Assembly (NCBI RefSeq): GCF_030684315.1
Contig: NC_081365.1
Location: forward strand, 45,865,205 to 45,929,204
Direction of reading: 5' to 3'
DNA: 64,000 bases
From: Stegostoma tigrinum
Taxonomy: Eukaryota
In this document: piece by piece, positions 2,171 through 44,559 of the stretch
How the letters are laid out: each line of letters opens with the position of its first letter
Position numbering within the stretch: the stretch's first letter is position 1
Notes under the pieces: model-generated
The model's database searches: none
The model's input: the letters and a program-made list of their open reading frames with translations, nothing else
Told to the model about the DNA's origin: nothing
Made by a program: the position numbers and the translations under genes

Positions 2171-3669
2171 ATAATGGGAACTGCAGATGCTGGAGAATTC
2201 CAAGATAATAAAATGTGAGGCTGGATGAACACAGCAGGCCAAGCAGCATCTCAGGAGCACAAAAGCTGACTTTTTGGGCCTAAACCCTTCATCAGAGAGG
2301 GGGATGGGGAGAGGGAACTGGAATAAATAGGGAGAGAGGGGGAGGCGGACCGAAGATGGAGAGTAAAGAAGATAGGTGGAGAGAGTGTAGGTGGGGAGGT
2401 AGGGAGGGGATAGGTCAGTCCAGGGAAGACGGACAGGTCAAGGAGGTGGGATGAGGTTAGTAGGTAGCTGGGGGTGCGGCTTGGGGTGGGAGGAAGGGAT
2501 GGGTGAGAGGAAGAAACGGTTAGGGAGGCAGAGACAGGTTGGACTGGTTTTGGGATGCAGTGAGTGGAGGGGAAGAGCTGGGCTGGTTGTGTGGTGCAGT
2601 GGGGGGAGGGGACGAACTGGGCTGGTTTAGGGATGCAGTAGGGGAAGGGGAGATTTTGAAACTGGTGAAGTCCACATTGATACCATATGACTGCAGGGTT
2701 CCCAGGCGGAATATGAGTTGCTGTTCCTGCAACCTTCGGGTGGCATCATTGTGGCACTGCAGGAGGCCCATGATGGACATGTCATCTAGAGAATGGGAGG
2801 GGGGGGTGGAAATGGTTTGCGACTGGGAGGTGCAGTAGTTTGTTGCGAACTGAGCGGAGGTGTTCTGCAAAGCGGTCCCCAAGCCTCCGCTTGGTTTCCC
2901 CAATGTAGAGGAAGCCGCACCAGGTACAGTGGATGCAGTATACCACATTGGCAGATGTGCAGGTGAACCTCTGCTTAATGTGGAATGTCATCTTGGGGCC
3001 TGGGATGGGGGTGAGGGAGGAGGTGTGGGGACAAGTGTAGCATTTTCTGCGGTTGCAGGGGAAGGTGCCGGGTGTGGTGGGGTTGGAGGGCAGTGTGGAG
3101 CGAACAAGGGAGTCACGGAGAGAGTGGTCTCTCCGGAAAGCTGACAGGGGAGGGGATGGAAAAATGTCTTGGGTGGTGGGGTCGGATTGTAAATGGCGGA
3201 AGTGACGGAGGATAATGCGTTGTATCCGGAGGTTGGTAGGGTGGTGTGTGAGAACGAGGGGGATCCTCTTGGGGCGGTTGTGGCGGGGGCGGGGTGTGAG
3301 GGATGTGTTGCGGGAAATACGGGAGACGCGGTCAAGGGCGTTGTCGATCACTGTGGGGGGATAGTTGCGGTCCTTAAAGAACTTGGACATCTGGGATGTG
3401 CAGGAGTGGAATGTCTTATCGTGGGAGCAGATGCGGCGGAGGCGGAGGAATTGGGAATAGGGGATGGAATTTTTGCAGGAGGGTGGGTGGGAGGAGGTGT
3501 ATTCTAGGTAGCTGTGGGAGTCGGTGGGCTTGAAATGGACATCAGTTACAAGCTGGTTGCCTGAGATGGAGACTGAGAGGCCCAGGAAGGTGAGGGATGT
3601 GCTGGAGATGGCCCAGGTGAACTGAAGGTTGGGATGGAAGGTGTTGGTGAAGTGGATGAACTGTTCCAC
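2171..3669 (-). mobile_element. Penelope-like retroelement (Neptune-type), 5'-truncated: RT C-terminus, Zn-finger linker, GIY-YIG endonuclease and terminal repeat
   Basis: ORF 2782-3669: FHPNLQFTW..HFKPTDSHSYL..SSHP..CNRRKCYTC..VVYCIHC..LYIGETKRRLGDRFAEH; terminus contains a decayed hammerhead motif at 2266-2295. Confidence 0.92.
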
Positions 3670-5232
3670 ATTTTGAACCTGGAGCCCCTCACTATTCAGA
3701 TGTTTCTGTCCTTGCCTTCACACTCCCTAGATTGAAAAAGCTTAACTTGTCTTGAGCCCCTTTGAGAACTCTCCAAGCCAATCAAATGCCGTTCTACTGC
3801 GTTCAATTCCCCCCTATGCCAGTAACTGTTCCTTCAGCTAGTCAATACAATCAGATTAATTCCCAGTTGTGAGTTGCCTATGACCCCAATGACACTAGGG
3901 ACAGACCAGAAAGCCCCCTGTTATTGTACAACACATGGGTTTGAATGATCATGGCACATATAGCCTGTCCCCATCTGATTGTGTCCCATCCCCCTGGACT
4001 GAATTTACAAGATGTACTCAATTGACTGGCCAGCAGGGTCAAGAGGACTGATTTTGTTTGACCACGTTTAGGACTGATTATGGCCCAATACGTAGACTGA
4101 AATAGCAGCACCTATCCCTGGGGTTGAATTGGTCCATCCTGAATGACCACAATCAACTCCCCAGGGTAGAAAGTGTAGTCTTTGGTCTGACTCTGGTAGT
4201 ACCCTTTGACTGGCAGGTGCCTATCCATGTCTGAGCAGGCATGCCTCCCTTTTTTGTTCAAATATCACCTTGCTGTTCCTGCACATACAGATTGTTTTCC
4301 ATTTATACTGCAGGCACATACCCCTCACATACTGATGCTGAACTGTGCCCTTCAGTGATATAGACCATTGTTTCCCCATTAACACTGCATTGTTCTCTAG
4401 AGACATTGTTCCTGCTTTGACGTCTGCACTAAAGTATTGATTTGATCCAACTGCAACATTTACAGCACCTAATATTTGTGTCAAGTCATTCTGGAAAGTT
4501 TTCTTCAATAATGACGCTGACATTTAGGTTCATTATCATGTGTCTATTTTGGTCAAATTGTGATTGGACTTTTCCTAGCACAGTAATAATGACATGGCCT
4601 GCTTTGGTCATCCAAAGCAACCACTCTGAGCAGCGGCAACATTTTGGTTATTGCAGAATTTATTCCCCAGTATCCCTTAATTTCAGGTCAAGCTAGAGCT
4701 TCTACCCAGAATGAAAGCTATTTAATTTGAAAACATTCAGAATTTTATACATCATTTTATACATCACCATACATTGCAACACTGATGTCAGCACCTCAAT
4801 AAGCAACTCCTTCCCAGCTGCCTATTTCTTTATTTTCTCTCTCCAGTAATGCACCCAGTAGTCCATCAACATATTTTGCTGTCTATTTCAAATGCTTTGC
4901 CTATTTGGTTAATCTATAATTCTTCACTCAATATCTATCAATTCTGTAATCTATATTCTCGAGACGAAACCATTTTTTGTGATCTCACTTACATTTGTGA
5001 GATAAAATGCCAGGCTTGAAGACTGCACATTTTACAAGTGGAGAAGTTTGATATTTTTCTCATTCAGGTCACAGTGCTGCGTGATGTCAATTCCGTGTGG
5101 TTCAAAACATTCAGAGAACGTTGATACATTGAATATGAAAGTGAGCCATTCAGTTTAATTTCAAGTACGAAGGGTCTGTACAATAGCTCCTTCTGTTGAT
5201 GCGAGATGCAACGTCCAACTGTTTAAAACTTT

Positions 5233-5388
5233 CTCAGAGACGGTAAGAACTGCCGATGCTGGAGTCAGAGATAACACTATGTGGAGCTGGATGATCACAG
5301 CAGGCCGGGCAGCATCAGAGGAGCAGGAAAGTTGACGTTTTGGTTTGGGACCCTTTCTGAAGATCAGCATCGGCAGTTCTTACTATCT
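5233..5388. mobile_element. Mini Penelope-terminus insertion with internal inversion and 14-bp target-site duplication
   Basis: CTGTTTAAAACTTT at 5219-5232 and 5389-5402; the ends are reverse complements (GTAAGAACTGCCGATGCTG / CAGCATCGGCAGTTCTTAC). Confidence 0.85.
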
Positions 5389-5479
5389 CTGTTTAAAACT
5401 TTATTTGCCTAAGAACAGTTTTGTAAAGTTTGCCTCTAAATTCAAATTGCTGGAGAATTTGAATTTTTACTGTAATAAT

Positions 5480-5955: not shown

Positions 5956-5964
5956 CAATTAAAG

Positions 5965-6202
5965 CCTTTTAACTGATTAAAGACTTAACAGTATCTAGCT
6001 TTGTTTAGTACGTCCTCATCAATGGTGTGAACCTTTGATGTTTTACTTATAAATTCTGTGTCTGATACCACCTCACTAACACCTGAAGAAGGAGTGAGAC
6101 TTCAAAACCTTGTGTTTTCAAAATAAACCTGTTGGACTATAACCTGGTGTCGTGTGATTTCTGACCTTGTCAACCCCTGTCCAACAGCGGCACCTCCACA
6201 CC
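5965..6202 (+). mobile_element. Terminal repeat of a second Penelope-like family
   Basis: cac-CTGAAGA-aggag..cttc-AAAACCTT-gtg (decayed hammerhead, 6080-6114) followed by AAATAAACCTGTTGGACTATAACCTGGTG. Confidence 0.65.
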
Positions 6203-6214
6203 ATAGATTACTTC

Positions 6215-7301
6215 CAAGGAAACAAGGTGTAGAGCTGGATGAACACAGCAGGCCAAGCAGCATCAGAGGAACAGGAAAGCTGATGTTTCAGGTCTAGACC
6301 CTTCTTCAGAAATGGGGGAGGGGAAGGGGATTCTGAAATAAATAGGAAGGGGGAGGGAGGCGCATAGAAGATGGAGAAAAGAGAAGATAGGTGGAGAGGA
6401 GACAGACAGGTCAAGGAGGCAGTGAGACAATGTTAGAGGTAAGCAATGGTATTAAATTATTGGAATTACATTGCCAGTGTAATATGTTAAAATCAAATGA
6501 TGTTAATGAGGCAATTTAAACCAAGAAATTGGTGTTCTTAAAAAGGTAAATCTAAATACAGTTTTGGTGCAAAGAGAGCTAAGAATAAAACATAAGCCTA
6601 AGTCACTATATCAGTGATTTGTGTGTCAGGCTATGGTTAAAAGAGATTCTAAGTATCATGACAAATGACTGCACCTCCCAGTAATGAATCATTTCAACAC
6701 CCCCTCCCACTCCTTGGATGACATGTCCACCCTGGGCCTCCTACAGTGCCACAATGATGCCACCCGAAGATTGCAGGAACAGCAACTCATACTTTGCTTG
6801 GGAACCCTGCAGCCCAATGGTATCAATGTGGATTTCACAAGCTTCGAAATCCCTCTCCTCCCACTGCATCCCAAAACCAGCCCAGCTCGTCCCCACCTCC
6901 CCCACCTGTCCTTCCTCCCACCTATCCCCTCCTCCCACCTCAAGCCCCATCCCAATCTCCAACCTACCAGCCTCATCCCACCCCCTTGACCTGATGGTCC
7001 TCCCTGGACTGACCTATCCCCTGCCCAGCTCCCCCCTACACTCACCTTTACTGGCTCCATTCCTGCTTCTTTGACCAGTCTGTCCTCTCTCCACCTATCT
7101 TCTCCTTTCTCCATCTTCTATGCGCCTCCCCCCTCTTCCTATTTATTTCGGAATCCCCTTCCCCTCCCCCATTTCTGAGGATGGGTCTAACCCGAAACGT
7201 CAGCCTTCCTGCTCCTCTGATGCTGCTGGGCCTGCTGTGTTCATCCAGCTCCACACCTTGTTATCTCAGATTCTCCAGCATTGGCAATTCCTACTATCTC
7301 T
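6215..7301. mobile_element. Composite Penelope-like insertion: inverted terminus (6215-6420), unrelated spacer, forward GIY-YIG C-terminus and terminus (6666-7301)
   Basis: ATRRLQEQQLILCLGTLQPNGINVDF is shared with the other copies; ATAGATTACTTC occurs on both sides (6203-6214, 7308-7319). Confidence 0.8.
7175..7203 (+). ncRNA. Minimal type I hammerhead ribozyme motif
   Basis: CTGAGGA-t-gggt(cta)accc-GAAACGTC-ag. Confidence 0.6.
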
Positions 7302-8019
7302 GTAACAATAGATTACTTCTGGCACTTTTTGTTCTATTGTCTATGTTATTGTGGTGTTTGGTTAACTTAGGCTTATATAGAACTGTAAACACATGTCTCT
7401 TGACACTACACACATGCGCACTATGCACTACTTCAATATGCACACGCACATTTAATCTGTTTCACCAGTAAATTTGGTGTGGCCATGAGTGGAGATGTGG
7501 GTTTGGATTTAACCTCCCAACTAAGGACATTATCTCTGCCAGTGTGATACTCCTGCAGTCCTGCACTAGATGATAAATTGAAATCCTAATCTTGGGATCC
7601 AGTTTCAAAAGTAATTTGAAGTGAGTCAGTGATCCTTGACTAGTAATTGTCAAGAGCTCTCACATAGAACAGTGACAGCTGCGTACTATGTTTTTCTCTT
7701 CTATCTTCCGGAATGCACTGACTTTGTTTTGAAATCAGATGCCCTCCATTGGTCATTCAAGTGACCTTTCTGCATACGTAACCTTACCAAATACAGCCCT
7801 GAAATTCATCTGTCAGAGGACCATGAATGTCATCCTGTCTGAAATATGAATTTGGTGCTCAACCTAGTTCCCTCATTAGTTGGCTTTTTATATAAGCTGC
7901 CAAATTCTGCTTTAGGGGATGGCTATAAGGACATTGCTGGATGAAGTACAACTGCTTCATTCGAATTTTCACCAGTTGTCTTAAGTTGGCACAAACATTA
8001 ATATGTATGCATGTAACAT

Positions 8020-9565
8020 CTATACGTGGAAGATGTCACCGTTTCCTGCGTGGATCTGCAGTCAGTGAGCGGACTCTTGAGCATCTGCGACCAGTTTGAA
8101 CTGGCCTCGGGTGCCAACATTAATGGGGCAAGAGTGAGGCCATGTTCTTTGGGAACTGGGCCAACAGATTCTTCATTCCTTTCACCATCACGACAGACTA
8201 CCTGAAGGTGCTGGGTATTTGGTTCAGAGGGGCTAGGGTGTGTGCCAAAACTTGGGAGAAGCATGTCACCAAAGTGAGGCAGAAACTAGGCATGGGAGGA
8301 TGGGTACCTCTCCATTGCAGGTAAAAACCTAGTCATCAGGAGTGAGGTACTCTCAGTGTTGCTGTATGTGGCACAGGTCTGGCCTATTCCCCAAACCTGT
8401 GCCGTTGCAGTCACCTGGGTCATCTTTCAATTAATTTGATGTTGAAGGTGGACTGAGTTTGAAGGGACATGATGTATAAAGAACTGGACAAAAGGGAGAA
8501 AATCATTCCTAATGCTACCCTTACCCTGATGGCTACCTTTGTGTGTGACTGCATCAAGCTGTGCAAAGATCCTCAGTGCCAAACACCAAGTGTCACTACT
8601 TACTGAGGTTCTACCTGTCCCTGTGTTGTAAGTGATAGGCCTGGCCTTGTTACCATTGAACGCTCCAAGTAGTTGGACTGTCTCGTACCACCTGTACTTC
8701 GTGGAGAAATTTGTGAAAAAAAAACCTTTGACCACAAGTCCATCAGGCAGTGGTCAGCATGTAATATCCTTAGGACCTGCCAGGAAAAGGAGAGGGTGGA
8801 CCTTGTTGAGTGGTTCCTTGTACAGACAGCCAAAGCTATTTGGCGGAATGCCTCATCACCAGAGTTTTCCAACAAGCACCAGGACATTGCTTGGCTGGTA
8901 GTGAGAAGGGCTCTGCCTGTGAGATCCTTAATGCATGCCCGGACTCCCTGTGCCAACGCACGCTGCCCTCGAAGTGGCTGCCATGGGGACGAGACTGTCA
9001 CACCTCCTTCTGGAATGCGCCTATGCAAAGGATGTCTGGGGGGAAAATGCAGTGGTTTTGATTAGGTCTGTCCTGAAGAACTCCATGATGTGGGACTCTG
9101 TTCTCTCCAGTCTGTTTCCCAGAATGCACACCAGACCAACATCACCTGTGCCTGCAGGACCATCAATGCGGTGAAAGATGTGCTTTGGTCTGCCAGAAAC
9201 TTGTCGGTCTTTCAGTTGAAAGATTTGACCCTGACCGAGTACTGCAGACTGGCACATTCCAAGGTCCAGGACTATGTGCTGGGGGTGCAATAAAGCTTGG
9301 GGAAGCTGCTGCCAAGGTGCAGTGGGGAAATAAACCACTGTGTAAGGTCCTTCTGCCAAAGCAAAACAGGGGGTCCCTTCAATAACCAGACCATGCTAAT
9401 GCCTCAGCTAAATGTCAACAGATTATTTCTAAATGTAGAGAAAGATGAACACCAATGTTTATTTCATTCTTGATGACAGCATGGATCGGAATGGCTACAT
9501 TAGCTGTGTATGTACATGAAGATTTCCTTCAATGAATAAAGTATATTTTTGCAACTAAAAAAAAT
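8020..9565 (+). mobile_element. Degenerate Tx1/L1-clade LINE, 3' part of ORF2
   Basis: YVEDVTV (YADD-like), GKNLVIRSEVLSVLLYVAQVW, zf-RVT CPRSGCHGDETV-HLLLECAYAKDVW, AATAAA and A-rich tail at ~9535-9564; multiple frameshifts. Confidence 0.82.
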
Positions 9566-9619
9566 CTGTACAGCTGTGGAAGGTCTTGATTCTAGGTTAC
9601 ATGAAGCTTAAGGTTAATT

Positions 9620-10525: not shown

Positions 10526-10794
10526 AAAAGTAATATTTTTCCTATAATTCCTCAACCAGCTCATCCAGGCACATCACACCTATAAACCAAATAGAAGTTC
10601 AGATTTGCCTCCAGGAGGCCAAAGTAAAAGTTACAGAACTTCAGTATCAGTGCCTATTTCAGTATTCATTGCATCCCTGCAGTGCTAATTCTGTCTCAAC
10701 TGTCATCCAAATGTGCACTTCCAACAAACATGACTAAATAGCAATCACCATCACCCTGATAGCGGTTAGGTTGTGAGTTCAATCTGACCTAGAT

Positions 10795-11569: not shown

Positions 11570-11970
11570 AAGGTATTGCTGAAAGAGGGGTGCTACTGAT
11601 GCTTTTTGTTTTACACTCATCAGGACAAACACAAGAATGCCAAATGTCAGACAATCACAATATTTTGTAATACAGGAAAAATGGATGATAATTAGCAGGC
11701 AGGTTGACTTTAATTGGCCAAAACATTGTCATGGAAAAAACAAAAGGGATCTCTAGCGATTCTGACAAGTGAAAGGAAAGGCGCAGGTATTAAATGTATT
11801 CTGTTTGTTTGCAGAAAATGGGTTCCTGCACAAGAATGTGTGTCATTCCTAGCAAATGTAAATTCACCATGTTAGCTGCTTGATGGATTAATATACTTTC
11901 TTGTTCGTATAGCTAATAGTACACTCAGGATTGTTTGGCATCTAATATCCAATCATAGAGTGCATCTAAC
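11570..11970 (-). mobile_element. Third Penelope-like family: decayed GIY-YIG C-terminus and terminus
   Basis: Minus strand reads ..NNPECT..HLL..QEPIFCKQTEYI, followed by gtcCTGATGAgtgtaaaacAAAAAGCATC (decayed hammerhead, 11596-11626). Confidence 0.55.
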
Positions 11971-14579: not shown

Positions 14580-17500
14580 GTAAGCTGCTTTGTGGCAATC
14601 TGAATAATAACTTGGTCAAAATGAACACATTAGATTGCACAACAAAAATAGTTTTGATATTTACATTTTCCACTTCAGCTAATCTCTTGCGTCCAGGCAT
14701 CAAGGGTATTTGTTATTTTTAGCTGTGACCAACAATCCGCTCTCCTCACTTTTAATAACATTTCAGGTTGAGTCACCCTTCCTCTGAAGATGCTGAGTTC
14801 TGAGGAAGGGTCACTTGACCCAAAACGTTTACTCTGATTTCTCTCCACAGATGCCGCCAAGCCCATTGAGCTTTTCCAGAAATCTATGTTCTTGTTTCTG
14901 ATTTACAGCATCTGCAATTCTTTAGGTTTTTAATGATCAGTCTTACAGCTAACACTGCTAGTAAGGTGCAAATCAAACAGCAACTTCCAGCAATTGCACG
15001 TGCTGTAGCCAAATTTGCAAGTGATACAAAAGTACGTGGAAAGGCAGGTTGAGAGAGGAATACAAACACTTTACACAGTGATATTGATAGGTTAAGTGTC
15101 AAAAAGTTGGCAAATGGTGCGTAATGTGGAGTAATTTGAAGTTGTTCATTTTAGAAGGGAGAACAAAAGAATGATTATATGAATGGAGAAAAATTGCAGA
15201 AAGCTGCAACGCAAAGGGACTTGGTGGTACTTGAGCATGAAACACAGAAAGCTAGCACAAGAGTTGCAGCAGGTAATAGAAGATGAATGGAATGGGGGCC
15301 CTTATTTCAAGGGATTGGAGTACAAGAGTAAGGAAGTCTTATGGCAATTGTGCAAGGTGCTGGTGAGACCATATCTGCAGTCTGTGAGCAGTTTTTGTTC
15401 ACTTATTCAAGGAAAGATATTACTGCATTGGAGGCAGTTCAGAGAAGATTCTCTCGGGTGATTCTTGATGTGGAAGGATCATCTTATCAGCAAAGACTAA
15501 ACAGGTTGGATCTGTACTTATTAGAGATTGGAAGAATGAGAGGCGATCTCTTGGAAACAGATAAAGTTCTTAAGGGGCTTGACAGGGTAAATGCTGAGAG
15601 AATGTTTTCTCTCATGGGAGAGTCGAGGACTAGAGGGCATAGTCTTAGAATTGAGGGTGCCAATTTAAGACTGAGATGAGGAGATTTCTTCTCTCACAGA
15701 GTTGTGAGTCTTTCAAACTCCTTGCCACAGGGAGCTGTGCGAGCAGAGCCTTTGTGTATACTTAAGGCTGAGACAGATAAGTTCTCAATCAGTAGGGGAA
15801 TCAAGGGATATGGGGAAAGAGCAGGAAAATCGACGTGAGGAATGTTACATCTGCCATGATCCTATTGAATGGTGGAGCCATCTCCAGGGCCCGAGTGGTC
15901 TACTCCTGTTCCCATTTCCTATGATCTTACGGTCTTATAAATATGAAAATCAGGAAATTGCTATTGAGGAGCTCTGCTCCTCCAGAAACCTCCTTCTAAC
16001 TGAGGGACTCAACATTGGAATCTATGGAATAGTATGAAGTTGCTGTGCTTACTTGATATATACCAAGTAATTTATCCAGAAAAAGATGTAACTTTTTATT
16101 TAAGCACAACAGAATATTTATTTCTGTGGTAAGTCTTAATTTCTGCCAAAAAACCTCTCTGCGGTGAAAATAGTAATGTGGAGTTCAATACCATCAGATT
16201 TTATTTATTGCGCATTTAAAAAGATCAAACAATTTTATAATATGTAAATTTTCTTTGTGTCTATTTTATCTCTTTCAATTCTACCTTCCTCTGTCCTTAT
16301 TTTACAATTTTAATGATTTGACATTGAATTGAATGTTCTAACTGACACTTCCTGGTTCAATACCTACATTCCACATTTAGAATTCTTCAATCTGAAAAAG
16401 AGATGTGAAAATGCTTGCCTCATTTACACAGGGTCCAGATACCATGCAAGGAGTGATGCATTCAAATGATGTTCTAATTTTAAAAGCCTTCATTAGAAAA
16501 TCATGTAGAAAGTTTATGGGCAAGTGACAATGTATAGAATATCTACTGCTTTCTGTTTGTTGCTGAGAGGAAGGCTCAGGTCCATGAGTAACCGATGCAA
16601 AATAAGTGTGGATTTCCTTTCAATGTGAGAAATTCAAAAGTCAACACTTGCCATTTCCTCATACCACATGTTATTTCTCTAATTCAAATACCGTTTTTTG
16701 GAGCAGTCTGAGAGCTAAGGGGAGTTATTTGCCCGTTCCTTGGTCATGACACTAGGGTAGATCATTTCACCTGACAACTGCTTTTGGCTATGTCTCATTC
16801 TTCATGGGCAACTTGTTAATGCCTGCCCTACTAGGTCCCTCATTTTATGCGATTAACCCTGTGACATGTCTTCACTGATATCATCTGAAACAGTCTGTGT
16901 GATAGTTGATGTATAGAATTGTGGAAGAAACAGCTATAACACTGCAGCTGTAAAGGCTCTATCCCCTAACCTGGTGGGATCCATTCATGAACTCAACAAT
17001 ATGTGGGTGTTGTTTTGACTTCCTATTTTCGCTGTGTTTTTTTTAGCACATGATATTAAATATTGTTTGATTCAACTAATCTTGCAAATACTGATATCTG
17101 ATGTTTTTAAAAGCAGTGATGCATCTATGCTCTTCTGTTACAATTTTGAAAGAAATCTTATATTTTGCTTCAGTAGACCAGAAAGTAAAAGATCTGATTC
17201 AACTAAAACACACCTGACAAAATCTGAACAACTTCTTAGAATAGAGGACCATGATTTTGCAATGAGACCTGGATTTGGAGGTAAAGGTTTTCTGCCAATT
17301 TCACTACGCTATTCAATGGTTTAAATATTCTTCTTAGTTCTGAAAAGTATAACTCTTATTATAGATTTTCTGTAGCTCTTATATTTTCATGTGAAAACAG
17401 TTCAAACAGCATAATTGGATAGTCAAAATCTGAGTCTCTCAGAACCTGAAGTAATATAAAAAGATTTGTGAGCATTTGGCTACTATAAACATAAAATTTA

Positions 17501-23500: not shown

Positions 23501-26500
23501 CACATCTTGGTTACAAGGTTTAGTTCTATGTCTTGTCTTAAAGGAGGAAAGCAAGTTGTAAGAAAGGGATTCTTGGCAAATGGAGACACAATCAACAATG
23601 GCGCAATGAATAAAAACAGTGTTCACAAGATGCCAGAAATAAATTAATGAAGACATCTTGGAGGGTTGTGTGACTGTAGGAGAATGCAGAGACTGGGAGG
23701 CACGAGACTTGACTGGGAGCCAATATAATTTAGTTCACAATGGGGTGACATGTGAACAGGATTTGATGCAGCTTAAGACTTGAACAGCAGAGTTTTGGAT
23801 GAACTCAGGGAGTTTAGAATATGGGACATGAGCCAGGAATGCATTCAAGGTAACAAGGCATGAGGAAGGGTTTCAGTAGGAGATGAAAGATCATGGAAAT
23901 AAGCAATCTCACTGATGGTGTGAATATATAGTCTCAACTGATCTTGGAATCAAATATGGCGCTAACGTGACCACCATGCCAGCAGTAGTAATCGAGCTAG
24001 TATCTAGGAAATTGGGTTGGAACAAGGACTGAAAATAATGATTTGTTGTGTAAATAATTACCAGCTTTAACACTCCATATTTTTACAATCATCCCTCTTT
24101 TGATTCTGAATCCATTTACCGCTGATGTTTTGTATCCATAGGACTTTACAATGACTTTGTATCTAAGACACTACTGGAAAGATAGCAGACTCGCTTTCCC
24201 AAGTTCCAACAACAGAAGTATGACATTTGATGGAAGATTAGTCAAGAAAATTTGGGTGCCAGATGTGTTTTTTGTTCACTCCAAAAGATCTTTCATACAT
24301 GACACAACCATGGAGAACATCATGCTAAGGGTATATCCAGATGGCAACATCCTATACAGTTTAAGGTGAATCATTGCTAATTGAATATCTTTAGTATTGC
24401 TGAGTTTAGTTTTTTCGGTATTAATCTTCTGGTGGGGTTTCCTTCCATAAATCCTTTTAAAGTTGATAATACTTGATATCAATGGAAATACAAGATTTAT
24501 TTTCCATTATATGCACTATGTTCTCTCACACTGTATTACAGCTAGATGACAGATCAACTATTCCCACATTTCAAAATACTATCTCATCAAAATGGTAAAC
24601 ATGATTCTTATTATTATTCAAATCCTTCAGGCTCCTGCACAATATAAGTAATATTGATACAAAATGTTTTTATTTGTACTTAATTATCATTTACATTGCA
24701 AAGCTTTAAATAATCCATGAAATGAGTTTACATAAGGCCAAGCTGAATTTATGTGAGAGAATTGCATTTTTGGGTCAAGTTTTAGAAAATGCAAAAGTTT
24801 CTATGTTCAATTCCAGCAAAAAAAATGCTCACCTTATTCCAAAAACATAACTCTGTAGCTTACCGTGTGTGTTGCATTAGATTTTGTAGTGCAAGCTCCA
24901 CTCTCTCATTTGATTAGGTTACAAGGAAAAGGAAAGCTTTCCCAGAGACCTTAATCTGCAATACTGTTGATAAGGGTTTGCAAAGCTACATGTGGGAAAA
25001 GCTCTTAAAGATCTACAAGTCTTCATAAATGAGGAAATTTTGGTGCATGGATGGGAGTGAGCCAATAGCTCTTAATGATACATTAGGGACATGTGGGCAA
25101 CTTGTTTAAAATGGCAGCCACATTGCAAGATGAATTCCCACAGAACTGAATGACTTCCTGAAGTAAATAACAGGTTGAGTAGGGAGGTGTGCATGCGTGG
25201 ATGAGCACAGTCACTTAAATGTATTCTTCCATTTATACAATATTTCTTACTCAGTTTGTCAAGCATGTCACACAGTGAAAATGGCAACTCATTTACCTAT
25301 GAGTACAAGCAATCTTTGTGCAATTGTATTAATTTGTATGCAAAGTCTCAAACTTTGAAGTAATTTTAGTGATGTTGTAACAGTTATAGCTGTAAGAGTT
25401 CTGAGGTAGTGTCACACAGCATTGGACAGCATAAATATGAATCTATTGAGAATTATGCTATAAACTTATCAATAGTGAGATGGAAATTGCAATGATTACA
25501 CAATTAATCTTTGTTTCATTTTAAATTCTGCACTTTCATTTTGTATTTGTTTGAGCAAAGTGACTCCTTAAATTTCTTGTGCAACTTGAAGCCAATTCTC
25601 CTAACAGTCTGAATCTAATGTGTGATAACAAGGTGTAGAGCTACTGAACACAGCAGGCCATGCAGCATCACAGGAGCAGGAAAGCTGACATTTCGGGCCT
25701 AGACCCAGATTCTCCAGCATCTGCAGTTCCTACTATCTCTGAATCTAATATGTGCCATTTTAAATGCGATTTAAGTATGAAAGTTAGAACAAATTTTGTG
25801 TGTTGCTTCTATTACTACCCATTATAGTCAAAATTTGAATGATATTCATGTTTTGTTGCATGTGTTCACAAATGCTTGAGTGACTGAGGAGCTGTGAATA
25901 TTGTTCAATTATCAGCTAGCATCCTCATTTCTGACCTTATGTTGAACGGATGAACATTGATGAAGCAGTTGAATATGTTTGGGTCTAGTACACTGCCCCG
26001 GTGTGCCACCAGTGATGTTAGGGATTCCTTTAGGTTAAACATAACCACATTCACATTGACTTCAATTTTGACATGACCCCTGGATATCGTACTCAACCAA
26101 AAGCTGCCTTGATGTCAAGGGTAGAGACCTTCATGTCACCTCTAAAATTCAGCTCTTTGGTTCATGTTTGTACAAATGTTGCAATGTCGCTTCAAGTTCA
26201 GTGACCTTGGTGGAACCTAATCTGTTTCAATGAACAGGTTGTTGCTAAATAAATGCAAATTGATTGCACTGTTATTTACACCTCTTATTTCCTTCCAGAT
26301 GATTGAAAATAAACTGATGGGACTATGATTACCTGGATTGGACCTAACCAGCTTATTTTATTCAGGATATACCTGGACAATACTCCATATTATTGGGTAG
26401 AAGACAGTGTAGTAGCTGCAATGAGCTATACTAAGGGTACAGTGGCTCTGGGGCACCTGTTCAGTTCTACATTCAGGGTGTTGTCAGGGCACAAAGACTT

Positions 26501-32500: not shown

Positions 32501-35500
32501 TATGTGACATCTGCATTTGAACATGCTGAAATCGCAATTATGATGATTTTGAACATAATTTAATGCTATGGTTCTCAAAGTTTGGGCTTGCATTTAAAAT
32601 GACTGAGTGTTTCTAAGGCACATGTGATCTTTTCTAAAAGCTGTCTGGGAAAAGGAAGTGGGACCCAGTTTATATGTAATGGGCTATTAGATTTTCTGAT
32701 TAATGGCAAACATATTCAGATAAATTTGCTGCTTTTGTTTTACATGAAGACTCCCAGAAATTCCAGGAGGCCAGGTAAGTAGAGTATCAGGTGGTTTGGG
32801 GATTGTTGCAGGGCGCCAGGTAAGTAGGACTCCAAATGGGTACAGTACCAGTGCATAAAATGTGAAAGGGGTCAGGTTAGTGATGGTAATGTTTAGAATA
32901 GGTCAGGGTGGGCAGAGGATGTTAGGATTTGTGGGAACATGGGTGGTTGATGTCAGGTTCTGGGGAGACAAGGGGCATGCCAGGCTCCAACAGTCAGAGT
33001 GGAAGGAGGTGATTAGTGCTGGGAGGGTGCATGAGGAGTCGGGTCCCTGGGGAGAAGGGAATTTTGGATACTAGATGGATGTTTTTGGATTCTGAGATGA
33101 GACAGGGTTATCACATCACAGATGGAGAGGGTGCATGTCTGGTTTCCACGGGAGTGGGTATTTGGGGCCTCGGATGAGGGGGCATTTTGTGTCCCTAGGG
33201 AATGTAGAGTTGTTGAGTTCTGAGAGAGGAGATTTTCAGGTACTCTTGGTTGCAACAAGAGTTCGGGTGGGTGCGCAGAGTGTTTGCTTCCAGGGAAATG
33301 AAGGAATCTCAGGTTCAATGGTGGGGGAAGGGTATAAAGTCTAGGTGGAAAGGGGGATTCTGGATCAGTGGATATGCAGTTGGGGGGAGTCTATGGTAAA
33401 TTGGTCATGTTTAAAAGTTAGCCAAACTTTAGACCAGATTTTTAAAAGGCTAACTTTTCCTGAGTGACTAGACACTTAACTGCAGTGAAATCATCCACAT
33501 TCTCCAGTTAACACAGATACTTTTGGAGGGTTCCAGGTTTTGGAAATGGCCTATCAGAATTTTCAATTTCCTGGTTAATTTCCTCAGAGTCTGGTTCATC
33601 AGAGATTTCACAGCTTTCTGATGTGCAACTTCCATTTACACAGCAGAATCGACAACAGGGAAAATCTAGGCCAAGAGGTTTCCCATTAAAGTAAAGATGA
33701 GGAAAAATATCTTGTCTCAGTGGGTCAGTGGTCTTCTGAATTCTCTTCCCCAGTGTGCATTGGAGCTGGGCCATTAAATATGTTGAAAGTTGAGTAGAAT
33801 TTTAATGGGGGATGCACAGGTAAATGAAGTGAAGAGCACAATCGATCAGCCTCAATCTTATTAAATGGCAGAGCAAGCTAAATGAAGCATGTATGTCAAA
33901 AAGTCCACCTTCATGATGTATGATTATTTAATCATATGCAGGATTAGGTGGAACAGGTTCATGGGCAAGATACAACCATGCGCTTCCTTGCCAAAATTTG
34001 CAAGCTTGAAGACAGCCACATACATCCTGATGGATACAGCAATGAATTTATAGGATAAGCATTATCTGGGTCAGAGGGAACAAGTGAGGAGAAGCAGCCA
34101 TGCAGGAGTGTATTTTTCTGCCATCAGAAATATCTTCAGTGTTCAGTTCAACTGGATAGCCACATTACAATCCTACTGTTGGTCAAGTTAGGTATTTTTC
34201 ACTTGAAGTTGGGGATCTATTCATGAAAATACTACTTTAAACAAAACAACGTTAGGTAAATCATGGATTACAAAGTGTGGGGCTGGATGAACACAGCAGG
34301 CCAAGCAGCATCTCAGGAGCACAAAAGCTGACGTTTCGGGCCTAGACCCTTCATCAGAAAAGGGGGATGGGGAGAGGATTCTGAAATAAATAGGGAGAGA
34401 GGGAGATGCGGACTGAAGATGGATAGAGGAGAAGATAGGTGGACAGGAGAGTATGGGTGGGAAGGTAGGGAGGGGATAGGTCAGCCCGGGGAGGACAGAC
34501 AGGTCAAGGGGGCAGGATGAGGTTGGTAGGTAGGAAATAGAGGTGCGGCTTGAGATGGGGGGAAGGGATAGGTGAGAGGAAGAACAGGTTAGGGAGGCAG
34601 GACGAGCTGGGCTGGTTTTGGGATGCAGTGGGGGAAGGGGAGATTTTGAAGCCAGTGAAATCCACATTGATACCATTAGGGTGCAGGGTTCCCAAGTGGA
34701 ATATGAGTTGCTGTTCCTGCAACCTACGGGTGGCATCGTTTTGGCACTGCAGGAGGCCCAGGATGGACCTATCATCTAAGGAATGGGAGGGGGAGTTGAA
34801 ATGGTTCGTGACTGGGAGGTGCAGTTGTTTACTGCGAACCGAGCGTAGATGTTCTGCAAAGCAGTCCCCAAGCCTCCGCTTGGTTTCTCCACTGTAGAGG
34901 AAGACACACCGGGTACAGCGGATGCAGTATACCACATTGGCGGATGTGCAGGTGAACATCTGCTTGATGTGGAAAGTCATCTTGGGGCCTGGGATGGGGG
35001 TGAGGGAGGAGGTGTGGGGGCAAGTGTAGCACTTCCTGCGGTTGCAGGGGAAAGTGGTGGGGAGTGTGGAGCGGACAAGGGAGTCGCGGAGAGGGTGGTC
35101 TCTATGGAAGGCAGACAAGGGTGGGGTTGGAAAAATGTCTTTAGTGGCGGGGTCGGATTGTAGATGGCGGAAGTGTCGGAGGATGATGTGTTGTATCCGG
35201 AGGTTGGTGGGGTGGTATGTGAGGACTCGGTGGATTCTCTTTTGGTGGTTATTGCGGGGCGGGGTGTGAGGGATAAGGTGCGGGAAATGCGGGAGACACG
35301 GTTGAGGGTGCTCTGAGTTGAGTGAATCATGGGTTTGTGTAGGAGTCTTCTTGAGGTTAGTATGGGGGTGATGTGCAGTGGATTAGCAGAAGCTGGACCA
35401 GGAGACAAGTCTGTGGGGAGAGGAAATACTGGGAGACAAGGTAGGGTTAGAGCTTAATGATGTTAAAACCAGAAGTGCCAATGTAATTCGAAGAAAAAGC

Positions 35501-37148: not shown

Positions 37149-37197
37149 ATGTTGCTCATTTTCAACCTTTCCAACCTTTCTAATTTTTCTTAATTTA

Positions 37198-37625: not shown

Positions 37626-39634
37626 ACAGTGAGCCTAAAATTTGGGTCATGTAGTGCCCATTTTTCACATGCTACACTAGTCTCTTAAGGCTGGGCAGCC
37701 ATTGAATGTTAACTTGAACTAACGATGGATTTCATTGAAAGGAAGTAACAGTTGATTTACAGGTGATGTGGAGTTTAAGGACATTTCATAGTTTATTGGA
37801 TACTGCCACAATTTTACTTTTTTCGTAAGATCTGAGCTTGAATATTACAGAACACATTGAAAATAAAGTATCAACAAATATATAAAACTTGAATGTAGCT
37901 TGGAGTACAAGTGAAACAAATAATTACTAATTTTTAAATCTAACAAACAAAATGCTGACATCCTCATACTGGGGAAATAAAACTGAATCTAATTTCAGCC
38001 TGAACTGTATTGTACTGCATATATTCTGAACATCATACCAAATGTTCTGAAAATTATCTTAAATTACAGAATATATAAATTAATTTGTGTAGAGTGTAGA
38101 CTCCTTGCTGTCTGTCCGGTTATGTTTTAACAATGGTTTTATTCATTTTAGTAATGGATATGAATTTATAAAGCATTGAATCACAGAAATTCCAAAGCTG
38201 TTCAAAGAGCAGATCAGCTGAAAGACCAATTAATCTGCTTTTGGTGCTGTGGTGGGAGACCTGCCAGGTGGTATACAAGGAGAACTCAACAATCGTCTTT
38301 GCAAGGTGTCATAGTGCTTTCCACTGACACATGAACAGGGGAACAGACGTTGCAAAAATGTCCTGTGTTGGAGAATTATTCACAGGAACAAAATAATGTA
38401 TACATAAAGGCATAGATATGAAAGTGCAATGGAGATTTTTTTTGAAAAAGGCATGCAGAACACAAGTCATTGTACGCACATTGCAACCCATTAAGACGTT
38501 ATTAATAATGCTATTTTCCATTCAAAAATCCCATTTAAAGTTTAGCCTTTTTTTTCAATATTAGGTGTCTCTTAGCAGCTTATAGTTATATAGATAGCAC
38601 TGTCAACAGAGTAAAGTATCCAAGGTGCTTCACTGAAGCAAAAACAGCATTCCCTTCAGGATGGTTGCACCATTGATTTTTTTTCCTAATGGAAGCAGAG
38701 AGAGAAAGGGAGCACTTTGCAGTTATACATGTTTGTTGGGAGCAATAAATGGAAATCATCTGCATCTCAAAGCCCCATTTGAAATTTTTTTTGTTTTATG
38801 AACAGAAAATGCTTCTTTCTATCAGTCTACGTTTGGCATACAGTGTCAATGATTTGATCTTGCATATATAAAAAAATCATGTAATTTTCACCATGCCATA
38901 ATTCACCATTCCAGCCATGTTGACTCAAGCCCAGGAATCAGCGTGATGAATTAGTGGCCAGAATGAGTGCTTCAACTGGTTGTTGATGACTCCAATGAGG
39001 CTTCCACAGAGATGAAAACACATGTAAGAAGGAATACAGAATCATCACTAGTAAAATAGAGCAAGTATAAAAAAATTCTGCAGTTTTGCTTTAGTTGCCT
39101 GTACAATTTCAGATGAGTACTGCATTATGGTGGAAAACTCCATAATCATATGGCAAATTGCATGATTTTGACGATTTTTGTCCAAAATATATTTTATTAC
39201 TTCTATTTTTAACAATATATTACATGAAATACAAATTTACAGTTACATACAGGCAACATGTACAGTTTCAGGCAACATGGATAATATTGTTTCAATGCAG
39301 TATATCTGGAACCCCACTGCACACGCCATCATATTCTTTAATAATTTATTATGGGATGAAAATATTGCTAGCTAAGCCAGCCTTCGTCACCAATCTCCAA
39401 TGTCGTTGAGAAAGCAGGAGCCAGTGAGGGATGGAGTGGGGAGGAGGGGAGTGGACAGAAATGAAGCATCTCGGAGGACGAGCAATAGGAAGATAAAGGG
39501 ATCAGGGAGAAGAGGAAGTGAGAGTTGGGGCAGGGGTGTGCAAGTCTTTTAAATGTTGTAACTGGACCCACATCCACCACTTCCTTTGGGAGTTTCTTTC
39601 TCCTCACACCTCAAAAATATGCCCACTCGTCTTC

Positions 39635-42600
39635 AGGGATGGAGGGTTGAGGGGAGGTGGGGGATGGGGGTAAAGCGATGGATGGGGGGGAGAAGAGGTG
39701 GTGGGGGATGGGGTAAAGAGATGGTGGGGTTGAGGGTAAAGAGATGGATGGGGGGTGAAGAGGTGACGGTGGCAAAGAGGTGGTGGGGGCTGGGGGAGAG
39801 GTGGGAGATGGAAGAGAGATGGAGGAATGGAGGGGGATGGGGTAGAGAGGCAGAAGGAAAGAGGTAGGGGAATGGGGAGAAGTGTGCTGGGGAAGAGATG
39901 TGGAAGAAATAGGGGCATGGTCGGGGAGAGATGTGGAGAGGAAGAGATGGGGGTATGGTGGGGGAGAAATGTGGAGGGTGAGAGATGGGGGCGCGGTGGG
40001 GGAGAGATGTGGAGGGGGAGAGATGGGGGAGCGGTGGGGGAGAGAAGTGGAGAGGGAGAGATGGGGGCGTGGAGGGGGAGGGATGGGTGCGTGGGGGGGA
40101 CAGATATGGTGTTGGAGCGATGTGGAGGGGGAGAGATGGGGGTGTGGTGGGGGAAGAGATGTGGAGGGGGAGAGATGGGGGCGTGGTGGGGGACAGAAGT
40201 GAGGGACAGATGGGGGCGTGGAGGAGGAGAGATGGGGGCGTGATGGTGGTGTGGTGGTGGAGTGATGTGGAGGAGGAGAGATGGGGGCGTGGAGGGGAAG
40301 AGATGTGGAGGGGGAGAGATGTGGAGGGGGAGAGATGGGGACGTGGAGGGGGAGAGATGTGGAGGGGGAGAGATGGGGGCGTGGTGGGGAAGAGATGTGG
40401 AGGAGGAGAGACGGGGGCGTGGAGGGGGAGAGATGGGAGCGCGGTGGGGGAGAGCTGTGGAGGGGGAGAGATGTGGAGGGGGAGAGAAGTGGAGGGGAGA
40501 GATGGGGGTGCAGTGGGGGAGAGAAGTGGAGAGGGAGAGATGGGGCGTGGAGGGGGAGAGATGGAGGCATGATGGGGGAGAGATGGGGGCATGGTGGCGG
40601 AGTGATATGGAGGGGGAGAGATGGGGATTTGGTGGGGGAGAGATGTGGAGGGGGAGAGATGTGTGCGTGGGGGGGACAGATGTGGTGGGGGAGCGATGTG
40701 GAGGGGGAGAGATGGGGGTGTGGTAGGGGAAGAGATGTGGAGGGGGAGAGATGGGGGCGTGGTGGGGGAGAGATGGGGGCATAGTAGCGGAGCGATATAG
40801 AGGGGGAGAGATGTGGTGGGGAGAGATGGGGGCGTGGTGGCGGAGTGATGTGGAGGAGGAGAGATGTGGAGGGGGAGAGATGTGGGGGAGAGATGTGGAG
40901 GGGGAGAGATGGGGGCGTGGTGGCGGAGTGATGTGGAGGAGGAGAGATGGGGGCGTGGTGGGGGAGAGGCGTGGGGGGGAGAGATGGGAGCGCGGTGGGG
41001 GAGAGCTGTGGAGGGGGAGAGAACTGGAGGAGAGAAATGAGGGTAGTGGGGGGTGAGATGTGGAGGGGGAGAGATGGGGCCGTGGAGGGGGAGTTGTGGA
41101 CGGGGAGAAATGGGGGCGCGGTGGCGGAGAGATGTGGAGGGGGAGAGATGGAGGCGCGGTGGTGGAGAGATGTGGAGGGGGAGAGATGTGGATGGGGAGA
41201 GATGGGGGTGCGGTGGGGGAGAGATGGGGGTGTGGAGGGGGAGAGATGTGGAGGGAGAGATGGGGGCATGGTGGTGGAGAGATGTGGAGGGAGAGATGGG
41301 GGCATGGTGGTGGAGAGATGTGGAGGGGGAGAGATGTGGATGGGGAGAGATGGGGGCGCGGTGGGGGAGAGATGTGGAGGGGGAGAGATGTGGAGGGGGA
41401 GAGATGGGGAGGGGGAGAGATGGGGCATGGAGGGGGAGTTGTGGACGGGGAGAGATGGGGGCGCGGTAGCGGAGAGATGTGGAGGGGGAGAGATGGAGGC
41501 GCGGTGGTGGAGAGATGGGGGTGTGGAGGGGGAGAGATGTGGAGGGGGAGAGATGTGGATGGGGAGAGATGGGGGAGAGATGTGGAGGGGGAGAGATGTG
41601 GAGGGGGAGAGATGTGTGCGTGGGGGGGACAGATGTGGTGGGGGAGCGATGTGGAGGGGGAGAGATGGGGGTGTGGTAGGGGAAGAGATGTGGAGGGGGA
41701 GAGATGGGGGCGTGGTGGGGGAGAGATGGGGGCATAGTAGCGGAGCGATATAGAGGGGGAGAGATGTGGTGGGGAGAGATGGGGGCGTGGTGGCGGAGTG
41801 ATGTGGAGGAGGAGAGATGTGGAGGGGGAGAGATGTGGGGGAGAGATGTGGAGGGGGAGAGATGGGGGCGTGGTGGCGGAGTGATGTGGAGGAGGAGAGA
41901 TGGGGGCGTGGTGGGGGAGAGGCGTGGGGGGGAGAGATGGGAGCGCGGTGGGGGAGAGCTGTGGAGGGGGAGAGAACTGGAGGAGAGAAATGAGGGATGT
42001 GGGGGGTGAGATGTGGAGGGGGAGAGATGGGGCCGTGGAGGGGGAGTTGTGGACGGGGAGAAATGGGGGCGCGGTGGCGGAGAGATGTGGAGGGGGAGAG
42101 ATGGAGGCGCGGTGGTGGAGAGATGTGGAGGGGGAGAGATGTGGATGGGGAGAGATGGGGGTGCGGTGGGGGAGAGATGGGGGTGTGGAGGGGGAGAGAT
42201 GTGGAGGGAGAGATGGGGGCATGGTGGTGGAGAGATGTGGAGGGAGAGATGGGGGCATGGTGGTGGAGAGATGTGGAGGGGGAGAGATGTGGATGGGGAG
42301 AGATGGGGGCGCGGTGGGGGAGAGATGTGGAGGGGGAGAGATGTGGAGGGGGAGAGATGGGGAGGGGGAGAGATGGGGCATGGAGGGGGAGTTGTGGACG
42401 GGGAGAGATGGGGGCGCGGTAGCGGAGAGATGTGGAGGGGGAGAGATGGAGGCGCGGTGGTGGAGAGATGGGGGTGTGGAGGGGGAGAGATGTGGAGGGG
42501 GAGAGATGTGGATGGGGAGAGATGGGGGAGAGATGTGGAGGGGGAGAGATGTGGAGGGGGAGAGATAGGGGCGCAGTGGGGGAGAGATGTGGAGGGGGAG

Positions 42601-43410
42601 AGATGGGTGTGCAGTGAGGGAGAGATGTGGAGGGGGAGAGATGTGGAGGGGGAGAGATGTGGATGGGGAGAGATGGGGGTGCGGTGGGGGAGAGATGGGG
42701 GTGTGGAGGAGGAGAGATGTGGATGGGGAGAGATGGGGGTGCGGTGGGGGAGAGATGGGGGTGTGGAGGGGGAGAGATGTGGAGGGGGAGAGATGGGGCG
42801 TGGAGGGGGAGTTGTGGACGGGGAGAGATGGGGGCGCGGTGGCGGAGAGATGTGGAGGGGGAGAGATGGAGGCGCGGTGGTGGAGAGATGTGGAGGGGGA
42901 GAGAAGTGGATGGGGAGAGATGGGAGTGCGGTGGGGGAGAGATGGGGGTGTGGAGGGGGAGAGATGTGGAGGGAGAGATGGGGGCATGGTGGTGGAGAGA
43001 TGTGGAGGGGGAGAGATGTGGATGGGGAGAGATGGGGCACGGTGGGGGAGAGATGTGGAGGGGGAGAGATGTGGAGGGGGAGAGATAGGGGCGCAGTGGG
43101 GGAGAGATGTGGAGGGGGAGAGATGGGTGTGCAGTGAGGGAGAGATGTGGAGGGGGAGAGATGGGGGTGCGGTGGGGGAGAGATGGGGGTGTGGAGGAGG
43201 AGAGATGTGGATGGGGAGAGATGGGGGTGCGGTGGGGGAGAGATGGGGGTGTGGAGGAGGAGAGATTTGGATGGGGAGAGATGGGGGTGTGCAGGGGGAG
43301 AGATGTGGAGGGGGAGAGATGTGGAGGGGAAGCGGTTGGTGAGGAGATAGGTGGAGGGGATGGGTACGAGATGGGGTGGTAGGGAGTGAGGGTTGGGGGC
43401 GGAAGGGTGA
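39635..43410. repeat. Complex polypurine (G/A-rich) satellite; core 16-mer GGAGGGGGAGAGATGT with ~22-mer variants and a 953-bp higher-order duplication
   Basis: Directly visible. Near-identical ORFs recur at a constant 953-nt offset (40751/41704, 40947/41900, 41060/42013, 41479/42432). Confidence 0.97.
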
Positions 43411-43439
43411 ATCTGAGGAGTAGCTGTTGCTTGATCTTC

Positions 43440-43785
43440 CTAAGTCGGGCTCCCGGGGCACTTTTTTTGCAGGATGTTGTGAAATGACAGTCTGGGTTCG
43501 CTCACAAAGTGTACACAGGCCAAAGGAGGGGGCGGGGCTGCTGTTTGAAAGGTCCCCTCCCCTCTCTCCCCGTGTGGGAGGAAAAGCTGTATCCCCTAGT
43601 CAGTGGGACCTTTCAGCTCGGAACGATTGGCGGGTGCCGGCGATGTGGGACTGGATTAGCGGCGGACCGGGGCCTAGGAAATCACCGGCAGCGGCGGATC
43701 GTGGGGCTGGAGTCACCAGCGGGAGGCAGGTGAGCCGGACGGGAGATCGGTGTGGGGTGGGTGTAGTGATGGAGCAAAGTAAGTA
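43440..43785 (+). promoter_or_regulatory. Probable TIPRL promoter and non-coding first exon (donor at 43730, alternative GTAAGT at 43779)
   Basis: CpG-rich unique stretch; GC box GGGGCGGGGC at ~43529-43538; CAG|GTGAGC donor; the ATG exon is preceded by an acceptor, so an upstream exon is expected. Confidence 0.6.
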
Positions 43786-44559
43786 CCTGCACATCTGCCA
43801 ATGTGGTATACTGCATCCACTGTACCCGGTGCGGCTCCCTCTACATTGGGGAAACCAAGCGGAGGCTTGGGGACCGCTTTGCAGAACACCTCCGCTCAGT
43901 TCGCAACAAACAACTGCACCTCCCAGTCGCAAACCATTTCCACTCCCCCTCCCATTCTCTAGATGACATGTCCATCATGGGCCTCCTGCACTGCCACAAT
44001 GATGCCACCCGAAGGTTGCAGGAACAGGAACTCATATTCCGCCTGGGAACCCTGCAGCCATATGGTATCAATGTGGACTTCACCAGTTTCAAAATCTCCC
44101 CTTCCCCTACTGCATCCCTAAACCAGCCCAGTTTGTCCCCTCCCCCCACTGCACCACACAACCGGCCCAGCTCTTCCCCCCCACCCACTGCATCCCAAAA
44201 CCAGTCCCAACCTGTCTCTGCCTCCCTAACCCGTTCTTCCTCTCACCCATCCCTTCCTCCCACCCCAAGCCGCACCCCCATCTACCTACTAACCTCATCC
44301 CACCTCCTTGACCTGTCCGTCTTTCCTGGACTGACCTATCCCCTCCCTACCTCCCCACCTACACTCTCTCCACCTATCTTCTTTACTCTCCATCTTCCGT
44401 CCGCCTCCCCCCCTCTCCCCATCCCCCTCTCTGATGAAGGGTCTGGGCCCGAAACGTCAGCTTTTGTGCTCCTGAGATGCTGCTTGGCCTGCTGTGTTCA
44501 TCCAGCCTCACATTTTATTATCTTGGAATTCTCCAGCATCTGCAGTTCCCATTATCTCT
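43786..44559 (+). mobile_element. Young Penelope-like fragment (GIY-YIG domain and terminus) just inside the presumed TIPRL first intron
   Basis: VYCIHCTRCGSLYIGETKRRLGDRFAEHLRSV..GINVDFTSF, open; very similar to 2171-2965; intact hammerhead core at 44431-44460. Confidence 0.92.
44431..44460 (+). ncRNA. Minimal type I hammerhead ribozyme motif (Penelope terminal repeat)
   Basis: CUGAUGA-a-gggu(cugg)gccc-GAA-ACGU-C|ag: both conserved core boxes, stem II, palindromic ACGU in place of stem III, GUC cleavage triplet; stem I is short. Confidence 0.65.

Follow-up and report, generated by a model that had tools for sequence, protein, structure and literature searches.

Hammerhead ribozymes of Penelope-like elements in Stegostoma tigrinum and copy ends at a predicted cleavage site

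The window analysed here is a 64,000-nucleotide (nt) stretch of the Stegostoma tigrinum genome (contig NC_081365.1, positions 45,865,205 to 45,929,204), in which a sequence-only reading had noticed eight hammerhead-like motifs. Judged by their sequence, the motifs are minimal type I hammerheads of the pseudo-long terminal repeats (pLTRs) found in Penelope-like elements (PLEs), with class and setting already known, and the families described here are new members. In one of them, family A, genomic copies end at two positions within the ribozyme region, namely at its front edge, where a capped transcript is predicted to start, and at the predicted scissile bond. In the accessible portions of the cited papers, to which all our statements on published systems refer, whether PLE hammerheads cut in vivo, and for what purpose, is stated as open (PMC4209133, PMC8557442).

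Hammerhead motifs and their Penelope-like hosts

Positions in each motif are counted from core C3 (= 0), and the family A cut is predicted between +27 and +28 (GUC/AG, with the slash at the cut). The eight stretches all read as the sequence-only reading had stated, with three intact cores and five decayed ones, and they sort into families A (2266, 34328, 44431), A' (6280, 7175; an older sister of family A), B (6080), C (11596) and D (14795). At 7175-7203(+), 34328-34357(-) and 44431-44460(+) the core is intact, together with stem II and the ACGU palindrome. G12A is found in four of the eight motifs (2266, 6080, 11596 and 14795), at 2266 together with loss of the stem III palindrome, and the 6280 motif keeps its core letters, has a C11.1U change that breaks the closing pair of stem II, and has lost the palindrome. 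The sites 6280(-) and 7175(+) are the two arms of one insertion bounded by a 12-base-pair (bp) target duplication (6203-6214 / 7308-7319). About 240 bp of non-element DNA (6423-6660) lie between these two arms, inside the target duplication. The elements and motifs are as follows.

44431..44460, plus strand: family A minimal hammerhead, intact; cut predicted at 44458/44459; stem I CU/AG (2 bp)
43785..44559, plus strand: family A copy, 5'-truncated, with GIY-YIG end, 3' untranslated region, ribozyme and tail to ~+128
34328..34357, minus strand: family A hammerhead, intact, source of the 30-mer counted 90,316-fold below; cut predicted at 34330/34329
34266..35382, minus strand: family A copy, 5'-truncated, ending at the short (+91) tail end
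2266..2295, minus strand: decayed family A hammerhead, with G12A and without the stem III palindrome
2167..3717, minus strand: family A copy, 5'-truncated, with the C-terminal part of the reverse transcriptase (RT), Cys linker and GIY-YIG
7175..7203, plus strand: family A' hammerhead with intact core and a UU/AG stem I; cut predicted at 7201/7202
7140..7145, plus strand: TATA-like box (TATTTA) that precedes by 31 nt an initiator-like A at 7171, where transcription is predicted to start (-4)
6280..6309, minus strand: family A' hammerhead in the inverted arm of the 6203..7319 insertion; stem II closing pair and palindrome altered
6203..7319, unstranded: whole A' insertion, with two inverted arms (tails to ~+90 and ~+130) and 12-bp target duplications
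6080..6114, plus strand: family B hammerhead, decayed (G12A); family form with CAC/GUG stem I and AGCU palindrome
11596..11626, minus strand: family C hammerhead-like motif, decayed (G12A); family form with GUC/GGC stem I, 2-bp stem II and AAGCUU palindrome; no link to an open reading frame (ORF) found
14795..14834, plus strand: family D hammerhead, decayed (G12A); family form with AGUU/AACU stem I; preceded by a short inverted arm

Using a strict descriptor, 4 matches were found in the window (the 3 intact sites and one chance-like match) versus 0-3 in 30 Markov shuffles, and the window by itself is thus weak evidence for hammerheads. Rfam covariance models run on the window at E<=5 gave 7 matches, none of them to a hammerhead family. 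A wider search with the descriptor, of the kind that the sequence-only reading had proposed, returned 36 matches in 104 random 10-kb loci (1.04 Mb) and none in 5 shuffles or in the reversed sequence. Extrapolation from these loci gives ~110,000 descriptor matches genome-wide, in agreement with the 90,316 genome occurrences of the exact 30-mer of the 34328 motif (control 0).

Stem I reads CU/AG in A, UU/AG in A', CAC/GUG in B, GUC/GGC in C, AGUU/AACU in D and UCA/UGA in a further family, E, which has a 6-7-bp stem II and occurs in L020, L036, L202 and random loci; helix I is 2 bp long in A and A' and 3-5 bp in B, C, D and E. Stem II, closed by a G10.1-C11.1 pair, is GGGU/GCCC or ACCC in A and A', GGAG/CUCC in B, GU/AC in C and GGGUC/GACCC in D, and is longer in E, and the palindromic remnant of stem III is ACGU in A, A', D and E, AGCU in B and AAGCUU in C. 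The CUGANGA...GAAA...UH core is intact in the family majority of A, A', C and D, and in family B G12 has mostly been lost to CpG decay (5/20 intact). Read by eye over A, A', B, C, D and E, stems and palindrome vary by family with the core kept, the covariation-like pattern that had been described from the window. Excess conservation of the core within a family, which had been expected, was not found in A or A' once subfamily-marker columns were removed (p=0.19 for A, at 5/495 in the core versus 44/2295 in the flanks; p=0.64 for A', at 11/198 versus 60/864). An apparent within-family conservation came from a first set that was core-anchored and mixed subfamilies, and was set aside when a less biased version lost significance. 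Within-family conservation is a poor refutation test here because core and flank decay alike and G12 sits in a CpG. Copies decay neutrally within a family while the core is kept across families, and selection is therefore visible between source lineages and not among dead copies.

The placement of the motifs in Penelope termini holds for family A, where a single frame encodes RT, Cys linker and GIY-YIG, and for A', B and D, which have an endonuclease remnant upstream; for C no such link was found (0/40 loci). The family A frame, with RT motifs, a C-X4-C-X2-C linker and GIY-YIG (Pfam E=0.001-0.009, below the gathering score), ends ~230 nt before the ribozyme and reaches a 975-aa open stretch in locus L201; a PDB search with this frame gave no match. 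Under the CX2-5CxxC definition (PMC8557442), the linker, as predicted from the frame, is the Neptune/Nematis mark. Full-length family A copies are ordered as start (-4), ribozyme, tail, ATG at +166, and then the frame of RT, Cys linker and GIY-YIG, and several of their loci have a tandem pLTR. Their 5' leader (L215, L228) has two upstream AUGs, one at +3, inside the core, with a frame of 13 codons, and one at +46 whose frame ends just ahead of the main ATG. At L212:2212 and L218:1740 an ORF piece is joined directly to the element 5' end, as if the enzyme had run off the RNA start and jumped. Same-strand GIY-YIG remnants lie upstream of the motif in L034, L131 and L148 (A'), in L104 and L113 (B, 30-35% identity) and in L156 and L134 (D), and the family E motif lies ~200 nt downstream of an endonuclease remnant. 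Family C, which is old, showed no GIY-YIG or RT remnant upstream of the motif in 40 loci; it is a genuine multi-copy repeat that carries CCAAT and TATA boxes, and its longest shared homology is ~390 bp.

Copy ends at the ribozyme front edge and at the predicted scissile bond

The ends of 203 A/A' copies from the 104 random loci were profiled, with 3 copies at locus edges dropped and a few D copies cross-matching. At the 3' side, 89/203 ended at +86..98 and 90/203 at +122..134 (the known optional tail), which places the two sites at ~+92 and ~+130, and head-to-head pairs nearly always combine one short-tail with one long-tail end. These two end classes, with one of each per pair, fit priming from both target strands at two internal sites, as described for PAc, the Poseidon element of Anolis carolinensis (PMC11167929). 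At the 5' side, 58 copies began at -8..+1, a single one at -35..-9, and 78 were spread over +2..+50; the same pile-up at the ribozyme front edge was found in family D, and none was seen in the 11 copies of family E. A TATA-like box stands 29-31 nt before an initiator-like base at the front edge in A, A', B, C and D, and 3 full-length copies begin at -4 to -2 without an upstream pLTR. Where the tail is joined directly to the ribozyme front edge, 22/43 junctions carry a non-templated G (hand count), and in L1 such a G reflects copying of the cap (PMC11702581). A splice acceptor was considered as the cause of the -4 ends and rejected, since A and A' lack an AG at that position and a cap would account for the extra G. 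We infer that the transcript start is capped at -4/-2, which would make the ribozyme the first 30 nt of the mRNA, and the start pile-up together with the extra G suggests that most copies derive from uncut RNA.

In family A, starts are also concentrated at the predicted cut, with genome-wide counts of 3,676 at +28, 967 at +27 and 746 at +29. The junction tallies given from here on are among the matches listed (the first 50-100, on contigs C1-C15). An AA prefix was found in 60/100 of the listed +28 starts, 44 of which are perfect palindromic pairs over AGCT. The perfect AGCT head-to-head junction accounts for 24/50 of the matches listed, of 1,859 loci (~890 by extrapolation), versus 1/50 listed for ACGT, 1/50 listed, of 1,563, for GGCC(+55), and 1/50 for GGCC(+15) and 0/50 for CTAG among the matches listed, of 3,671. 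Twenty AGCT loci proved to be independent insertions, each with its own flanks, with 10-16-bp duplications in 15/20 and a short plus a long arm in 19/20, and with subfamily marks common to both arms and different between loci; this independence rules out a single amplified hairpin element as the source of the AGCT junctions.

Direct junctions from the tail to a restart (154 in total) gave a second class. By hand count, the restart lies at +28 in 81/100 of those listed, at +27 in 9 and at other positions in 10; compared with a uniform distribution over 27 positions, the excess at +28 has a p of about 1e-51. These +28 restarts are found in 45/60 loci with a junction homology of 0-1 nt, and an extra G followed TTGG or TTGGA in 0/100 of those listed. 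Inside single insertions the restarts build arrays whose units measure ~68 nt and whose junctions are not uniform along an array; L315, for example, is one insertion with 12-bp duplications and 10 units, 9 of which end at +28, again with varying junctions. Nearly every array pass ends at +28 while most copies read through, and two template states are therefore needed, of which a cut, uncapped RNA is the simplest for the +28 ends. Cut RNA is estimated to account for 1-2% of young copies.

A proposed cut-defined template and its rivals

From these ends, we consider it likely that minimal type I PLE hammerheads occupy the 5' end of the transcript, where the cap is predicted, and that the family A ribozyme cuts a small share of the RNA in the germ line. 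With more reserve, we lean towards the further proposal that this germ-line cut, ~32 nt from the cap, delimits on the 5' side a ~68-nt template, which the RT of Penelope reiterates onto one DNA end, in a telomerase-like manner, with the product kept in hundreds of insertions. Transcription would start from the TATA promoter supplied by the upstream pLTR, and both nicked target strands would prime reverse transcription inside the tail (twin priming). On uncut RNA the enzyme would read through the ribozyme to the cap, leaving the extra G, or into the upstream frame. Cleavage would be occasional and probably protein-assisted, as for PAc (PMC11167929); an element protein is probably needed, since an inactive hairpin is the predicted fold of the free RNA. 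On cut RNA the enzyme would run off at +28, after which two cDNAs could anneal by their self-complementary AGCT ends, or else the enzyme could re-prime at ~+96 and recopy the same 68 nt. Because priming lies downstream of the ribozyme, the cut would separate the priming site from the upstream frame and take the cap off the downstream one. If this is true, the ribozyme would be active but dispensable for insertion, acting perhaps as an off-switch or as an end-processing step, which is the weakest step of the mechanism. The genome yields base-exact predictions: the capped end should lie at -4/-2 and the uncapped one at +28, and re-priming should take place at ~+96.

Several results weigh against this proposal. 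Just 2/203 of the randomly sampled copies start at +28, and among solo copies starts at +28 do not clearly outnumber those at +29 (5/21 vs 8/21 inspected; ~250-330 vs 280 as a genome-wide estimate). The junction tallies come from the first matches listed. In family A', AGCT junctions make up 2/50 of the matches listed and +28 accounts for 1/9 restarts, and in family D there were 0 restarts and 0/6 junctions with both arms at the cut; both families are old, and the junction search gave few exact matches in them. The A' result speaks against pure microhomology, yet it leaves the +28 signal resting on one family. The suggestion that some copies may still cleave gains from the genomic ends at +28 in family A, which are consistent with cleavage, and finds no comparable signal in A' or D. 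With ViennaRNA, the family A RNA is predicted to prefer an inactive hairpin (-11.4 kcal/mol) over a hammerhead-like fold (-3.6 kcal/mol), the lowest-energy fold of the dimer is also inactive, and stem I of family A has just 2 bp. The predicted hairpin, CUGAUG/CGUCAG, spans 0..+29 with its 3' foot at +29. In the family A segment -4..+29 (e.g. 44427-44460), the AG after the cut can pair either with CU at -2/-1, as in hammerhead stem I, or with the core CU, as in the inactive hairpin, and these two pairings make a two-base slip switch possible.

The same hairpin is what would produce the +28 ends if the ribozyme were inactive and the RT stalled at the foot of the stable structure (0..+29) or at a bound protein. 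It is the predicted fold, its strength is greater in A, at -11.4, than in A', at about -8, matching the restriction of the signal to A, and 9/100 of the restarts listed lie at +27, as a stall might leave them. Stalling would, however, be expected at +30 or spread over several positions, whereas of the three starts counted +29 has the fewest copies, and the two template states required by the arrays are not what one stable obstacle would give; we regard this explanation as unlikely. The palindromic character of many +28 starts led us to test microhomology as well, that is, plain joins at AGCT with arrays that grew later by slippage or unequal exchange. AGCT is self-complementary, the 44/100 palindromic pairs among the listed starts and the lack of a +28 excess in solo copies agree with such joins, and some arrays have mostly identical junctions (C5:1683551), as slippage would produce. 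Four other nearby 4-bp palindromes reach only 0-1/50 among the matches listed, however, and AGCT is present in many A' copies that rarely join there; junctions also differ inside single arrays, and the direct restarts, which strike +28 with almost no homology, largely refute this rival, which we hold to be highly improbable.

Slightly less improbable, though still doubtful in the extreme, is that the cut product was ligated into a small circle (+28 to ~+96) and copied by rolling circle, or that +28 is a second transcription start. Circle formation has been proposed for PLE hammerheads (PMC4209133) and some arrays repeat one junction many times, but one circle should give one junction, and junctions differ within the arrays C2:102329896 and L315. 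RNA from a second start would be capped and should show the extra G, which follows TTGG or TTGGA in none of the 100 direct restarts listed. A cut RNA thus remains our preferred source of the +28 ends.

Relation to known systems and other features of the window

The metazoan PLE hammerheads surveyed by Cervera and De la Pena (2014, PMC4209133) resemble those described here in the type I core, the G10.1-C11.1 pair, the extra base after A9, the palindromic 15.2/16.2 positions and the presence of several families per genome, and their copies are likewise mostly single and truncated, with some pairs on opposite strands. The 2-bp helix I of A and A' has a counterpart in that reported for D. virilis (PMC4209133). 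Stem II differs from that set, spanning 4-5 bp in families A, A', B and D, with 2 bp in family C. The highest counts given there are ~4,000 and ~9,000, with no cartilaginous fish among them, versus at least 90,316 here, so that the ~100,000 intact motifs form a natural sample far larger than in the published surveys compared (PMC4209133); and whereas the portion of that survey used here offers no in vivo evidence, genomic ends at the predicted cut are found here. Cleavage as dimers was reported by Lunse et al. (PMC5785218), according to the review PMC6765202.

In PAc (Frangieh et al. 2024, PMC11167929), as here, the ribozyme lies near the ORF start, RT starts at two internal sites 30-40 nt apart and both target strands are extended; uncut RNA is the main substrate and cleavage needs protein, which is also our reading. 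Family A differs from it in the Neptune/Nematis-type Cys linker and in an ATG 166 nt downstream. The PAc account, in the portion cited, has no reads starting or ending at the cut, whereas genomic junctions mark it here, and repeated re-priming at the cut is absent from that account. Neptune/Nematis-type endonuclease-positive (EN+) PLEs (Craig et al. 2021, PMC8557442; Arkhipova et al. 2013, PMC3846280) share with family A the RT, a CX2-5CxxC linker and GIY-YIG at the C terminus, and their insertions likewise show partial tandems, an inverted truncated copy, a one-sided tail and palindromes at inverted junctions; family A has pLTR tandems, an inverted truncated copy and an optional 30-40-bp tail. 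These two papers describe the role of the ribozyme as unclear and attribute the junction palindromes to self-priming on an antisense template, whereas here the extra G of the cap and the scissile-bond ends point to a sense template. A TATA box with a TCACT initiator was predicted in an Adineta pLTR (PMC8557442, PMC3846280), and the internal promoter of D. virilis Penelope lacks a TATA box (PMC2377424), unlike the upstream TATA-like box here. Non-LTR retrozymes of animals (bioRxiv 10.64898/2026.07.22.740005), one cartilaginous fish included, are likewise tandem repeats from PLE pLTRs, but each of their units holds a whole ribozyme, whereas the 68-nt arrays here begin at the cut and hold none. 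The copies in the window are single or inverted, and only a few short arrays that start near the 5' end hold whole ribozymes. Our literature search, which left subscription journals and supplements outside its range, found no report of copy ends at the cut, of reiterated units or of shark PLE hammerheads.

Telomerase copies a bounded stretch of one RNA repeatedly onto a DNA end. The likeness proposed here concerns this reiteration of a bounded template and is a resemblance, not membership; compared with telomerase, the unit here is ~68 nt, the realignment homology 0-1 nt, the event rare (~125 junctions) and the 5' boundary a predicted ribozyme cut. If the proposal is true, a PLE RT would copy a bounded template repeatedly, which would bear on the origin of telomerase-like reiteration, the telomerase RT being the sister group of PLE RTs (PMC8557442).

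Three further inverted insertions in the window were absent from the sequence-only reading.

5219..5402, unstranded: inverted A'-type mini-insertion with partial ribozyme and 14-bp target duplication
25608..25749, unstranded: inverted A'-type mini-insertion with partial ribozyme and 12-bp target duplication
52345..52533, unstranded: inverted A'-type mini-insertion with the ribozyme mostly lost at the junction and 10-bp target duplication

The Rfam matches to mir-3926 and MIR528 at 52405-52498 were rejected as microRNAs, being the hairpin of inverted tails and below the gathering score. Inverted tail pairs give long hairpins that resemble microRNA precursors, and thousands of such hairpins are present genome-wide. 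Among the neighbouring features, 36780-37148 (+) is the final coding exon for a GABA-A receptor subunit, with rho-1 as its best match, and the 34328 family A copy lies upstream of this exon on the opposite strand. A remnant of another Penelope-type RT, with 33-42% identity to family A, lies at 9607-10244 (+), and a zf-RVT remnant of a long interspersed nuclear element (LINE) at 8673-9065 (+). Two tandem repeats complete the window, a 4-kb G-rich array at 39600-43500 with units of 16/22/38 nt and a GC-rich repeat with a 38-nt unit at 61988-62196.

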